A stretch of DNA of 64,000 nt. Origin: Escherichia coli (GTDB lineage: Bacteria; Pseudomonadota; Gammaproteobacteria; Enterobacterales; Enterobacteriaceae). Position numbers and translations under genes: made by a program. Below are positions 1,191-48,385 of this stretch, piece after piece. The notes beneath the pieces are model-generated. The model did not search any database. It was not told the origin of the DNA and saw nothing but the letters and a program-made list of their open reading frames with translations. The stretch lies in NCBI RefSeq assembly GCF_024502345.1, contig NZ_JALDNN010000002.1; one strand, written 5' to 3'. Position 1 is the stretch's first letter; every line of letters begins with the position of its first letter.

Positions 1191-2386
1191 GGAAGGTGCG
1201 AACAAGTCCCTGATATGAGATCATGTTTGTCATCTGGAGCCATGGAACAGGGTTCATTATGAGTCATCAACTTACCTTCGCCGACAGTGAATTCAGCAGT
1301 AAGCGCCGTCAGACCAGAAAAGAGATTTTCTTGTCCCGCATGGAGCAGATTCTGCCATGGCAAAACATGGTGGAAGTCATCGAGCCGTTTTAACCCAAGG
1401 CGGGCAATGGCCGACGGCCCTATCCGCTGGAAACCATGCTACGCATTCACTGCATGCAGCATTGGTACAACCTGAGCGATGGCGCGATGGAAGATGCTCT
1501 GTACGAAATCGCCTCCATGCGCCTGTTTGCCCGGTTATCCCTGGATAGCGCCTTGCCGGACCGCACCACCATCATGAATTTCCGCCACCTGCTGGAGCAG
1601 CATCAACTGGCCCGCCAATTGTTCAAGACCATCAATCGCTGGCTGGCCGAAGCAGGCGTCATGATGACTCGAGGCACCTTGGTCGATGCCACCATCATTG
1701 AGGCACCCAGCTCGACCAAGAACAAAGAGCAGCAACGCGATCCGGAGATGCATCAGACCAAGAAAGGCAATCAGTGGCACTTTGGCATGAAGGCCCACAT
1801 TGGTGTCGATGCCAAGAGTGGCCTGACCCACAGCCTGGTCACCACCGCGGCCAACGAGCATGACCTCAATCAGCCGGGTAATCTGCTTCATGGAGAGGAG
1901 CAATTTGTCTCAGCCGATGCCGGCTACCAAGGAGCGCCACAGCGCGAGGAGCTGGCCGAGGTGGATGTGGACTGGCTGATCGCCGAGCGTCCCGGCAGGG
2001 TAAAAACCTTGAAGCAGCATCCGCGCAAGAACAAAACGGCCATCAACATCGAATACATGAAAGCCAGCATCCGTGCCAGGGTGGAGCACCCGTTTCGCAT
2101 CATCAAGCGGCAGTTCGGCTTCGTGAAAGCCAGATACAAGGGGCTGCTGAAAAACGATAACCAACTGGCGATGTTATTCACCCTGGCCAACCTGTTTCGG
2201 GTGGACCAAATGATACGTCAGTGGGAGAGATCTCAGTAAAAACCGGAAATAACGCCAGAAATGGTGGAAAAAATAGCCTAAATAGGCTGATTCGATGTGT
2301 TTGCGGGAAAAAAATCGGCCCAGATCCGCGAAATTTTAATCAGCGAGTCAGCTTGGGAAGAAATGACCTGCTTATTCGCACCTTCC
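1191..2386 (+). mobile_element. IS5-family element, ISKpn26-like (1196 bp), copy A
   Basis: Terminal IRs ggaaggtgcgaa.../...ttcgcaccttcc; flanks ctaa/ttaa; transposase close to IS5 InsH but with a different 3' end region than the canonical IS5 at 28453. Confidence 0.9.
1259..2239 (+). pseudogene. IS5-family transposase with premature stop at codon 45 (TAA at 1391-1393 where intact copies have TAT)
   Basis: In-frame read from ATG 1259 hits TAA; ORF track restarts at internal Met 1436 (267 aa); intact copies B and D read ...EPFYPK... Confidence 0.85.
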
Positions 2387-2517
2387 TTAATATAAAGACA
2401 CAAGCAGAGACATTTTTGGCACGATATAAAAACGCTAAGTTAAAAAATCACTATGACGTGTTGGGTATCAAATGTTCACTGGCATAAACCTCTGTTTCTG
2501 ATGTAAAACAGATTTTC

Positions 2518-2543
2518 TGAGGAGGCGTAAAACCTCCTCGTAC
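2518..2543 (-). terminator. possible hairpin terminator downstream of ftnB-like gene
   Basis: Inverted repeat gaggagg...cctcctc just 3' of the minus-strand stop; weak U-tract. Confidence 0.3.
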
Positions 2544-2555
2544 TGCGAAATTGAT

Positions 2556-3056
2556 TTAGTGATAGCGATCGATCACGCCAACCAGATAGTGGTCGGTTTG
2601 CTGCATGTTGATGCCCGCTTTTTTAGCGCTGCGGACTTCATCCAGAATGATTTGCAACAGCGTCCCGTCCACGATTTCCTCTTTTCTGTATCGCTTCAGG
2701 AAGTTAATCGCTGACTTATCGTTTGCTGCCTGGGCGTCTTCCGTCAAAGAGGTCAGCGCATTAATGCGCTTCTGGTAATCGCTTACCGTCTGCTCAAACA
2801 GATCTTCCAGCGTGGAAAATTCACCGCACCGGGCGTGTTGCTCCTGTAACACCGGCGTGGCGCCGCTCTGTTTGATGTATTCGTACATGCGCATCATTTG
2901 CGTCACCGTATTTTGCGCCTGATGACGCAAAAATAGTGCGGTGCCATTAAGGCTATTCTCGCTGCACCTCTGGCTGAGCTGAAGATACAAATTTGAGGTA
3001 TAAAACTCCTGATTCATTTGCGCATTCAGTTTTTGAACTATTCCGCTAGCGATCAT
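2556..3056 (-). CDS. ftnB: ferritin-like protein (FtnB-like)
   Basis: 166 aa; ferritin motifs (...KLNAQMNQEFYTSNLYLQLS..., ...ILDEVRSAKKAG...) resembling E. coli FtnB/YecI from memory. Confidence 0.75.
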   Translation of the reverse strand: MIASGIVQKLNAQMNQEFYTSNLYLQLSQRCSENSLNGTALFLRHQAQNTVTQMMRMYEYIKQSGATPVLQEQHARCGEFSTLEDLFEQTVSDYQKRINALTSLTEDAQAANDKSAINFLKRYRKEEIVDGTLLQIILDEVRSAKKAGINMQQTDHYLVGVIDRYH

Positions 3057-3330
3057 AGGACTTCCTTATTTCTTGTCATCTCAGAAAACGGTCACTCTTC
3101 GAAAAAACAACCAGAATAAAAGCGATTCTTTCGCTTTTTTTATTGCGCCTGGTTACACAGTCATATTCATTTTAAGTCGGGATGCTCCTTATTTAAATAT
3201 CCAACCCTACTATCGCATTTCTATCTGGCATTATTCTGTGATGGTGTTTCGATATTCACACTCCCTGTGCCAATCCTTTCTTATCGACAGTAGGAAACTT
3301 CCTCCGGCTATTCTGCTGAACACGATTAGG

Positions 3331-45633: not shown

Positions 45634-45954
45634 GCGGATTGTCCTTGCGCCAATACAATTGTACGAATCTTCTACATGAAATTAAGGTCTGGATTCTGAA
45701 GGATGAAAAGTAACTTTTGGAATTTTAATACTGCCGCTTTGAACCTTAAAACTAACCTTTCAGCCATTACCCATACTTGTAACACTTTTTAACCAAACTA
45801 ACCAGAATTTTATCAAAAAACCCTGACCTTGCTAACGAAATGTGAACCGTATAAAAAAACCTCAAAGCCTGAGTCGTTATCGGCATTAAGTAGCAATAAC
45901 CTTAGGGAAAAATGCGCGTAAGCATGATTATTTTTTCGATTGTTTAACATGACT

Positions 45955-46130
45955 ACTACATAGGGTCACTTTTTGCTGAAAAGTGGCCCTATGCACCATC
46001 GACATAGGGTCACTTCTTGATGAAAAGTGACCCTATGTAATCACGACATAGGGTCACTTTTTTTAAAAGTGGCACTATGCGTCAAAATCATAGGGTCACT
46101 TTCCTTTAAAAAGTGGCACTAGATAGATGT
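45955..46130. repeat. array of four imperfect ~35-bp palindromes (CATAGGGTCACTTTT ... AAAAGTGaCCCTATG) at about 44-bp spacing
   Basis: Directly visible; lies between the divergent 267-aa gene and the 46389 operon. Confidence 0.9.
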
Positions 46131-46388
46131 ATAACTTAGTAGGTAAAACAGTTCTTTTCAGATCACGATCTCAGCAATAAGCATTGCTGGAAAAGTTACT
46201 TTTCTTCCACGATAAAATGCGGACCTTTTGGCCGTTCCCGTTTACATCTGATGTCACTCACTCTCAGTGCTTCCTCCATTCTTAAATTTGCCATGCAAAA
46301 TTCTCGAAAAAATTCACAGAAAAAAGTCCCGTTCGTGAAAAAAAATTGAAAATCACTTCGGTATAGTGATTTCACATCAGGAGGCCCC

Positions 46389-46874
46389 ATGTCTAAATCG
46401 AAGCTATTAAAGTCATTAGAGATTTCACGTACTTTATTGCGCTCACAAATCGATGTTCTTCGAGAAGAGGCTGAAGAACTGATCACCAATTATTGGATCG
46501 AGTGGAAAGAACGGAATCACATTGAGAGGAATTTACCCAGGGATAGCAAAACTCTAAAGAAGGAGTATCTGGGTTCATATGCACCAAAAGTTGAGCTAAT
46601 TGGTAATGCCAGGAAAGTCACCATTACCTGGCATCAGTTTAGCCCGTATAAAAACAGGCCACCTAGTCACATGTCGAAACGGATTTCACCGATGAAAAGT
46701 GGAAAATATACGAAAAGCTGCTTTGTTAATCATGCCAGCTGGGAATATGAAATGATTGAAAAAACGGAGGGATTACTGGAACCCTACAGAGAATTACTTG
46801 AGTTCTACCATGCTGCATATATCGAACTGGGACGAAAAGTCCGTCAATACTCAAAATCAGAGGTGGCACAATGA
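46389..46874 (+). CDS. hypothetical protein (161 aa)
   Basis: AGGAGG RBS 7 bp upstream; no recognised family. Confidence 0.6.
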   Translation: MSKSKLLKSLEISRTLLRSQIDVLREEAEELITNYWIEWKERNHIERNLPRDSKTLKKEYLGSYAPKVELIGNARKVTITWHQFSPYKNRPPSHMSKRISPMKSGKYTKSCFVNHASWEYEMIEKTEGLLEPYRELLEFYHAAYIELGRKVRQYSKSEVAQ

Positions 46875-47189
46875 CCGATGTAACAATGAATGAAAGCGAG
46901 CATAAGGTACCTGACGTAAATACCCGCTCCCCTCATGCGTCCGATAATAGCCGTAGGGTCGTGCAAAGTAAAAATGAACATTACGGCATGGCTACAGTAA
47001 CTATTACCCCAGGCACGCCAGACTTTAACCGATTTCTCACGGCACGTAATCGTTCCGTAATAAGAGGGTTTGATGATGTCAGTATTGCCATTTCATCCTT
47101 ATTCAGAACGGTCAATGCAGTTAAGCACCCCGAACTAGTGCAGGCAATTCAAGACTGGTTCAATGAATTGCACGAAGAAAATAATCTAA
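46871..47189 (+). CDS. hypothetical protein, 3' end disrupted or capped by ISKpn26 copy E
   Basis: Start overlaps upstream stop (ATGA); frame runs into the IS left end at 47190. Confidence 0.5.
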
Positions 47190-48385
47190 GGAAGGTGCGA
47201 ATAAGCAGGTCATTTCTTCCCAAGCTGACTCGCTGATTAAAATTTCGCGGATCTGGGCCGATTTTTTTCCCGCAAACACATCGAATCAGCCTATTTAGGC
47301 TATTTTTTCCACCATTTCTGGCGTTATTTCCGGTTTTTACTGAGATCTCTCCCACTGACGTATCATTTGGTCCACCCGAAACAGGTTGGCCAGGGTGAAT
47401 AACATCGCCAGTTGGTTATCGTTTTTCAGCAGCCCCTTGTATCTGGCTTTCACGAAGCCGAACTGCCGCTTGATGATGCGAAACGGGTGCTCCACCCTGG
47501 CACGGATGCTGGCTTTCATGTATTCGATGTTGATGGCCGTTTTGTTCTTGCGCGGATGCTGCTTCAAGGTTTTTACCCTGCCGGGACGCTCGGCGATCAG
47601 CCAGTCCACATCCACCTCGGCCAGCTCCTCGCGCTGTGGCGCTCCTTGGTAGCCGGCATCGGCTGAGACAAATTGCTCCTCTCCATGAAGCAGATTACCC
47701 AGCTGATTGAGGTCATGCTCGTTGGCCGCGGTGGTGACCAGGCTGTGGGTCAGGCCACTCTTGGCATCGACACCAATGTGGGCCTTCATGCCAAAGTGCC
47801 ACTGATTGCCTTTCTTGGTCTGATGCATCTCCGGATCGCGTTGCTGCTCTTTGTTCTTGGTCGAGCTGGGTGCCTCAATGATGGTGGCATCGACCAAGGT
47901 GCCTCGAGTCATCATGACGCCTGCTTCGGCCAGCCAGCGATTGATGGTCTTGAACAATTGGCGGGCCAGTTGATGCTGCTCCAGCAGGTGGCGGAAATTC
48001 ATGATGGTGGTGCGGTCCGGCAAGGCGCTATCCAGGGATAACCGGGCAAACAGGCGCATGGAGGCGATTTCGTACAGAGCATCTTCCATCGCGCCATCGC
48101 TCAGGTTGTACCAATGCTGCATGCAGTGAATGCGTAGCATGGTTTCCAGCGGATAAGGTCGCCGGCCATTACCAGCCTTGGGTTAAAACGGCTCGATGAC
48201 TTCCACCATGTTTTGCCATGGCAGAATCTGCTCCATGCGGGACAAGAAAATCTCTTTTCTGGTCTGACGGCGCTTACTGCTGAATTCACTGTCGGCGAAG
48301 GTAAGTTGATGACTCATGATGAACCCTGTTCCATGGCTCCAGATGACAAACATGATCTCATATCAGGGACTTGTTCGCACCTTCC
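47190..48385 (-). mobile_element. ISKpn26-like copy E (1196 bp)
   Basis: Both IRs present; flanks ctaa / atag do not match. Confidence 0.9.
47337..48317 (-). pseudogene. IS5-family transposase with the same codon-45 TAA stop as copy A
   Basis: Revcomp of 48180-48200 reads gagccgttttaacccaag. Confidence 0.85.

Follow-up and report, generated by a model that had tools for sequence, protein, structure and literature searches.

A nonsense allele shared by two IS5/ISKpn26 hybrid copies in an Escherichia coli plasmid points to descent from one defective element

How can a defective insertion sequence (IS) come to occupy two distant places of one plasmid? We address this question for a stretch of 64,000 nucleotides (nt) of Escherichia coli DNA (contig NZ_JALDNN010000002.1 of assembly GCF_024502345.1; here called the window, to whose whole length all coordinates refer). 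Two of its IS5-family copies, designated A and E, both carry a TAA stop at codon 45 of the transposase gene, counted from the MSHQL start of the protein. We consider it probable that both copies descend from a single defective IS5-type element, which was spread by carriage in Tn3-family ends and IS26-bounded segments, combined with recombination between IS copies. Below, A and E are compared with each other and with loci fetched from other records, which are given L numbers.

Six IS5-family pieces were identified in the window, namely, a 113-bp left-end remnant, copies A and B, fragment C, and copies D and E (Table 1). The terminal repeats of A and E read GGAAGGTGCGAACAAG on the left and GGAAGGTGCGAATAAG on the right. 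The transposase ATG lies at 1259 in A and at 48317 (complement) in E, and codon 45 is TAA in both copies (1391-1393 in A; 48183-48185, complement, in E), while TAT is found at the aligned position of B and D. In the list of open reading frames (ORFs), the stop splits the frame of copy A into ORFs 1223..1393 and 1436..2239. A and E are 99.4% identical and differ at 7 of 1196 positions (IS positions 68, 212, 215, 224, 227, 230, and 685); they are inverted with respect to each other and lie 44.8 kb apart, which makes them a 1.2-kb inverted homology. The five changes at 212-230 are synonymous, and position 685 gives P206 in A and L206 in E. Fragment C is 100% identical to the matching part of E, and the left-end remnant has C at IS position 68, unlike copy A. 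Copy B comprises an intact transposase ORF of 338 amino acids (aa) (28598-29614) and a perfect 4-bp duplication (TTAG/TTAG in IS orientation); it is apparently the sole autonomous IS5-family copy within the window. Copy D ends at an adjoining IS1 copy and has lost its last ~210 bp there. This IS1 copy (43058-43822), which meets D at 43823, is the second of a head-to-tail pair whose first member is at 42287-43056 (771 bp start to start).

The Pfam families PF01609 and PF05598 matched both the intact ORF of B and the 267-aa downstream ORF of A. An uninterrupted transposase frame was found neither in A nor in E nor in any of the 17 full-length TAA relatives tested, and A and E are almost certainly nonautonomous. 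These results agree with the first-pass annotation of the window, which had reported the shared stop together with the boundaries of the two copies. It had also described B and D as intact at codon 45; TAT is indeed present in both, but only B is a fully intact copy and D is without its 3′ end. Several features of the IS5 group are displayed by A and E, including a transposase of the DDE_Tnp_1 type with DUF772, a length of ~1.2 kb, and 16-bp terminal repeats of the form GGAAGGTGCGAA(C/T)AAG. The 4-bp YTAR target-site duplication is lacking at A (CTAA/TTAA) and at E (CTAT/TTAG in IS orientation), and it is present at B and at L017, L018, L020, L021, L006, L016, L029, and L030. A and E are therefore IS5-family elements by sequence, yet their present junctions were not made by transposition.

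The distribution of the allele was followed with a 30-mer probe that was built so that every 28-base megablast seed covers the variant base. The TAA version was detected in 52 PLSDB plasmid records (58 places) from seven genera (Escherichia, Klebsiella, Citrobacter, Enterobacter, Salmonella, Raoultella, and Providencia). Among 5,426 complete E. coli genomes, 26 had it, at 5 chromosomal and 23 plasmid places. The same 30-mer with TAT was found in 1,251 records (1,651 places) and with TAC in 1,686 records (1,984 places); the TAA share of the 30-mer places is about 1.6%. RefSeq labels the TAA copies "IS5-like element IS5 family transposase" and marks them as pseudogenes ("internal stop"). The TAA 30-mer was absent from 100,044 species-representative genomes scanned for exact matches, a zero that is uninformative because draft genomes collapse IS copies (the TAC/TAT control gave only 13 stretches). 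A literature search for this allele, or for spreading defective IS5/ISKpn26 copies, returned only papers on mgrB disruption and general IS reviews. The TAA allele is thus an established, rare lineage that public annotation has already recorded. Its occurrence in the 52 PLSDB records and 26 E. coli genomes excludes chance and also the sequencing error in both copies that the first-pass annotation had held open. The proposal that the defective allele has been copied was upheld, since the stop is common to A and E by descent. The copying took place outside this plasmid, as the A module exists elsewhere and the left junction of E occurs in at least 18 other records.

We next consider which element the allele arose in. 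For typing, RefSeq product names were used as proxies for IS5 and ISKpn26 in place of the ISfinder reference sequence. The first 330 bp of E were 100% identical in 35 PLSDB records, in which no gene is listed at this place, and showed a single mismatch (99.7%) to records annotated as intact IS5. The band of at least 99% identity for this segment comprised 1,609 records, and those listed were the records and coordinates of the TAC list. Compared in 100-bp bins with an intact TAC copy of IS5 (L018, 38767-39962), E had 6 differences over the first 1100 bp against 27 over the last 100 bp. When it was compared with ISKpn26-annotated copies, its differences numbered about 50-55 within the first 560 bp, and the last 300 bp were free of them. 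Over the last ~200 bp, A and E showed no differences from ISKpn26 copies versus about 27-40 from IS5 copies, and their 3′ end (roughly IS positions 1000-1196) was identical to that of the ISKpn26-annotated L017, L030, and L014b. Judged by these comparisons, A and E are IS5 (5′)/ISKpn26 (3′) hybrids. The earlier label "ISKpn26-like" consequently suits their 3′ end but not the 5′ part, which matches IS5. With IS5 of E. coli (InsH/Ins5A), they have in common a length of 1195-1196 bp, the 16-bp repeats, the transposase type, and a first ~1000 bp with few differences (for E), and IS5-type targeting of YTAR with 4-bp duplications is seen at copy B, L017, L020, and L021; they differ from IS5 in the stop, in the ISKpn26-type last ~200 bp, and in the missing duplication. 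With ISKpn26 of Klebsiella pneumoniae, they share the family, the length, the terminal repeats, and an identical 3′ end, and the difference lies in the 5′ 560 bp. Copy D and the element resident at the mobI site (see below) are likewise of the ISKpn26 type. The patch at 212-230 that sets E apart from A is normal IS5 sequence and was found with TAT in 54 records. Flanks and 3′ haplotypes switch jointly; for instance, L026 has a full IS5-type 3′ end together with a new right flank. Because the first 330 bp of E are only one base away from intact TAC copies of IS5, the nonsense change was most likely TAC to TAA. The change from TAT to TAA assumed in the first-pass annotation is not favored, as the closest intact relatives of A and E have TAC at codon 45.

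The junctions of copy E were then compared with those of 24 sampled TAA copies. The left junction of E, formed by TCATGTTTAGCTAT followed by GGAAGG, is located 155 bp inside IR2, the inverted repeat of a putative Tn3-family element end, and the identical 156-bp left flank, IR2 included, was found in 18 of the 24 copies. IR2 itself displayed five outer junctions: an IS5 remnant broken at position 284, a gene for an ATP-binding protein, a site downstream of a lactate permease gene, a TonB-receptor gene, and, in the window, an IS110 gene. The last of these junctions was met only in the window. The right flanks of the IR2-lineage copies vary. At least six were observed (TTAATATAAAGACA, CTAAGGTACCAGCA, CTAACAGAATGGGT, TTAATAATATGG, CTAACTCACTGCGC, and TTAGATTATTTT of the window), all of which begin with a YTAR target, as though they had been taken from other IS5-family insertions. 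The right junction of E, TTAGATTATTTT beside mobI(A/C), is common to 33 PLSDB records. In Citrobacter freundii plasmid p705SK3_1 (L017) and Citrobacter plasmid pRHB35-C21_2 (L018), this mobI site is occupied by an intact, TAT-bearing ISKpn26 that is flanked by a perfect TTAG duplication. No TAA copy was found at the mobI junction in the 25 that were listed of the 33 junction-bearing PLSDB records, and the complete arrangement of E may be specific to this plasmid lineage. Because E combines the left side of the founder with the right side of the resident element, we regard it as a crossover product. Judging from the sequences, the exchange must have taken place 3′ of codon 45, in the 3′ portion where both types are identical.

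Copy A lies to the right of a different putative Tn3-family end, IR1 (Table 1), which has itself inserted into another IS5 copy and left the remnant at 875-987. The 203 bp plus CTAA that form the left flank of A precede a 284-bp IS5 remnant in L001, L007, L011, and L014; this remnant has TAT, and after it come IR2, 155 bp, and the TAA element. In L012, L018, and L019, these 203 bp stand before A-type copies, and seven outer IR1 junctions were seen. On its right side, A is followed by TTAATATAAAGACA, a ferritin-like gene, and IS26, which is the right flank of the TAA copies in the IR2 context of L008, L009, L010, and L027. Six of the seven differences between A and E are remnant alleles (T68 and GCAGC at 212-230), all within the 284-bp overlap, and T68 was found only in remnants and A-type copies. 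E-type alleles are kept by A at 109-203, stop codon included, and at 242-254. The patch at 212-230 was lost only where a remnant was present in cis (L001, partly L002, and the A-type fusions) and in 0 of 13 scorable IR2-context copies without the remnant. For A as for E, junctions and internal haplotype blocks thus trace to different parental copies. The block at 987-4150 of the window was 99.9-100% identical in plasmids of Enterobacter cloacae (CP104841), Citrobacter sp. (CP057148), and C. freundii (CP048383), where, with that of the window counted, it showed three different outer junctions. Copy A is 100% identical, stop included, to copies in plasmids of two other species. Since the A module exists elsewhere, A was inherited as a block and was not made in this plasmid.

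A single inversion between A and E was also considered as the whole source of the odd flanks and was rejected, because the A module is unchanged in plasmids with one TAA copy (L012, L018, and L019). The absence from the window of the left flank of the resident mobI-site element also disfavors such an inversion.

Many records with the TAA allele (L008-L010, L027, and the E. coli AW1.7 plasmids H24 and H32; L009 is Salmonella Senftenberg ATCC 43845) derive from strains or plasmids that are known for the heat-resistance locus. An sHSP20 gene comes after the ferritin/IS26 segment of L010, and modules that travel with this locus may be marked by the defective IS. Neither clpK nor hsp20 was found among those window ORFs that were checked.

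Another setting of the allele is a site beside RepB (L006 and L016), where a TAA copy with a perfect CTAA/CTAA duplication occurs in at least 8 records. At the same site, CP054225 (L029, NZ_CP054225.1, 1401-2596) differs from L016 only by TAC at codon 45, and CP107722 (L030) has an ISKpn26-type TAT allele with identical flanks and the CTAA duplication. This is allelic replacement or mutation in place and not a new insertion of the defective element. A second duplication-flanked TAA copy was sought in E. coli NCTC9040 (L004) and rejected, its flanks (CTAG/CAAG) being imperfect. Window positions 57845-64000 match the region upstream of RepB in LT883141 (L016, NZ_LT883141.1, 1-5015), where the feature following RepB is the duplication-flanked TAA copy of IS5. 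A third TAA copy may thus be situated just past position 64000 in the replicon behind the window.

These observations suggest the following course of events. The allele would have originated once, by one third-position change at codon 45 (most likely TAC to TAA), either in the IS5 copy 155 bp inside IR2 of a Tn3-family element or in another copy from which it was transferred early into that one. It would then have spread among plasmids of Enterobacterales without a transposase of its own along two routes. First, it would have been carried along whenever the surrounding Tn3-family ends and IS26-bounded segments moved. Second, homologous recombination of the RecA type, or gene conversion, with other IS5 and ISKpn26 copies would have swapped its flanks and internal patches. 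In the case of E, the left junction of the founder would have been kept and the right junction gained through a crossover with the ISKpn26 that normally lies beside mobI; the reciprocal junction of this exchange would be TGTTGATACATTAG followed by an IS. In the case of A, the TAA element would have recombined with the 284-bp IS5 remnant just upstream, whereby IR2 was deleted and the left flank of the remnant became fused to the TAA element. Exchanges or repair tracts on either side of codon 45 could explain why the stop survived. The A module would then have circulated as a block, and the plasmid of the window would have acquired both modules. This course resembles what is known of IS copies acting as portable homology, with flank exchange that leaves no duplications, hybrid elements, deletion between direct repeats (the A module), and several alleles at one site (RepB). 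We see no difference of substance; it is a textbook outcome that here propagates a null allele.

Several points weigh against this reconstruction. Junctions and haplotypes were sampled for 24 TAA copies out of about 86 known places. The junction of the founder is itself unduplicated, as its left flank is CTAT and no sampled right flank starts with CTAT, so that the original insertion is undocumented. The crossover point of E is not locatable within the last ~300 bp, over which its parents are identical. For copy A, the alternation of remnant, E-type, remnant, and E-type alleles within 284 bp needs patchy mismatch repair or three exchanges, and the T68 marker is one single site. The exact parents of A are unsampled: no record combined the remnant, IR2, a TAA element without the patch, and the ferritin-side flank, the closest being L014 and L001. 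Finally, the RepB-site copy could be a true trans-mobilized insertion or the place where the mutation arose.

The first-pass annotation had named two possible means of copying but not the passive carriage inside Tn3-family ends and IS26-bounded modules, to which much of the spread is due. The junctions and haplotypes described above support homologous recombination or gene conversion for A as well as for E. Mobilization in trans, by which an element with intact ends and the TAA allele would have been moved by the transposase of an intact copy such as B to give A, E, or both, appears improbable. A and E share their terminal 16-17 bp with B, which has an intact transposase ORF and a duplication of its own, and intact IS5 copies that differ by one base from the first 330 bp of E are very common in the same plasmid pool. 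The perfect CTAA duplication of the TAA copy at the RepB site also speaks for this route. However, neither A nor E is flanked by a duplication, each of their four junctions is common to a different, identifiable preexisting structure, and two left junctions account for 21 of the 24 sampled TAA copies. The element at the RepB site carries TAC or an ISKpn26-type TAT behind identical flanks and was therefore there independently of TAA or was mutated in place. Among the sampled TAA copies, a duplication was found only at the RepB site, though a compatible source of transposase exists. The transposase of IS903, another member of the IS5 family, acts preferentially in cis.

It is also conceivable, although very unlikely, that the allele has been kept because it is useful. 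The next in-frame ATG after the stop is Met60 (1436 in A; 48140, complement, in E), and reinitiation there would yield a 267-aa transposase (to 2239 in A; 47337-48140 in E) that is partly active or acts as an inhibitor like the Inh protein of Tn5. The DDE domain PF01609 is retained completely in this ORF; the 17 full-length TAA copies tested are all exactly 1196 bp long and free of a second stop; and the allele has persisted across seven genera. Against such a role, the product would be without 59 N-terminal residues and the start of DUF772, and ATG 1436 is preceded by a weak Shine-Dalgarno match (-3.3 kcal/mol) that is unremarkable among all ATGs of the window. The copies have gathered so few private mutations that the lack of a second lesion carries no meaning, the allele makes up only a small share of the 30-mer places, and its spread is explained by linkage to mobile flanks. 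No solved structure related to the transposase was found by sequence. The likeness to Inh of Tn5 (IS50) is a formal analogy, in that the ORF starts from an internal Met, is without the N-terminal region, and keeps the catalytic domain; Inh is expressed by a functional element from a promoter and a start codon of its own, whereas here a nonsense mutation and a weak ribosome-binding signal are found. By this analogy, the Met60 product might dampen transposition of intact IS5/ISKpn26 copies on the same plasmids, a notion to which we give still less credence. If true, dampening could help the carrier plasmids and explain why the allele persists without a second lesion.

That the same T- or C-to-A change arose twice, or that an assembly or polishing error was copied onto both repeats, can practically be dismissed: TAC or TAT to TAA is a single transversion and collapsed or cross-polished repeats can pass a variant from one copy to another in short-read-polished assemblies, but A and E keep their seven distinguishing sites and so were not collapsed, the allele recurs with linked flanks in the PLSDB and E. 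coli records from unrelated projects, and A matches the copies of two other species completely.

Table 1. Features of the window that bear on the shared stop codon
Feature	Position	Strand	Description
IS5-like left-end remnant	875-987	+	IS positions 1-113; cut by insertion of the Tn3-type end IR1
Putative Tn3-family element end	987-1190	+	38-bp IR1 (987-1024, GGGGTCTGACGCTCAGTGGAACGAAAACTCACGTTAAG) plus 166 bp of interior ending in CTAA
Copy A	1191-2386	+	1196-bp IS5/ISKpn26 hybrid; both terminal repeats complete
Ferritin-like gene	2556-3056	-	Right-hand part of the A module (2387-4150)
IS26	3328-4150		Right-hand part of the A module (2387-4150)
Copy B	28453-29646	-	1194-bp IS5-like copy; TAT at codon 45
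Fragment C	32422-33024	+	Right-end 603 bp of an IS5/ISKpn26 element
Copy D	43823-44805	-	ISKpn26-type copy; TAT at codon 45
mobI(A/C)	46389-46874	+	Backbone bearing the resident ISKpn26 insertion site, which is the right junction of E
Copy E	47190-48385	-	1196-bp IS5/ISKpn26 hybrid; both terminal repeats complete
Second putative Tn3-family element end	48386-48541	-	38-bp IR2 (48504-48541, GGGGTCCGCTTGGAAAAAGGAAATTATCCTACGCTAAG) plus 118 bp of interior
IS110-family transposase gene, first 56 codons	48542-48709	-	Cut off by the insertion of IR2

We now turn to the putative Tn3-family ends beside A and E. Both IR1 and IR2 are of a 38-bp form that begins with GGGG, and they were met with seven and five outer junctions, respectively. 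IR1 matches the 38-bp terminal repeat of Tn3, and IR2 has the GGGG...ACGCTAAG form of the Tn21-subgroup repeats. In L002, L003, L005, L024, and L025, which include chromosomes and plasmids, IS5708 (IS110/IS1111 group) is inserted inside IR2, about 125 bp upstream of the TAA copy of IS5. Elements of the IS1111 group (IS4321, IS5075, and IS5708) target Tn21-type inverted repeats, and the insertion fits a Tn21-type transposon end. No partner repeat of IR1 or IR2 was found in the window at up to 3 mismatches. In contrast to a passenger IS of a Tn3 transposon, the TAA copies were not met inside an entire transposon with a second IR1 or IR2 at its far end. IR1 and IR2 may be orphan ends that were moved otherwise, e.g., by IS26 or by recombination.

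Further mobile elements and repeats were observed in the window. Two IS30-family copies (18417-19681 and 23364-24628; inverted, 1265 nt, and 98% complementary) bracket 3.7 kb with a 676-aa ORF (21054-23084) for which no NCBIfam match was obtained. An hsdR ORF (24619-27396) begins at the end of the second IS30 copy and lacks about 95 positions at the start of the profile, so that the arrangement resembles a type I restriction gene interrupted by a composite insertion. Tandem arrays are located at 13682-14180 (37 bp, 13.5 copies) and 55637-56096 (43 bp, 10.7 copies), with 93-94% matches, each within a few kilobases of one of two umuC genes, and the first array partly matches sequence just downstream of the replication initiation gene in L018. 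Two genes for group II intron reverse transcriptases/maturases (10980-12467 and 61755-63113) belong to the same mosaic plasmid segment as a cluster for sucrose uptake and hydrolysis at 36460-40885, which comprises a porin, a phosphotransferase system IIBC component, and a sucrose-6-phosphate hydrolase.

Taken on its own, the shared stop codon is a case of ordinary mobile-element decay, a known pseudogene allele in IS copies that behave as such copies are known to do. Its distribution indicates that linkage to other mobile DNA and IS recombination can bring a null transposase allele into dozens of plasmids, from seven genera, with no transposition of its own. IS copy number and shared IS alleles are accordingly not evidence of transposition activity, and family names given to mosaic copies can mislead. 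As A and E are inverted copies, the 44.8 kb between them should be invertible. In combination with an IR2 or IR1 junction, the TAA allele provides a tracer for modules, such as that beside the ferritin/IS26 segment, among plasmids of Enterobacterales.

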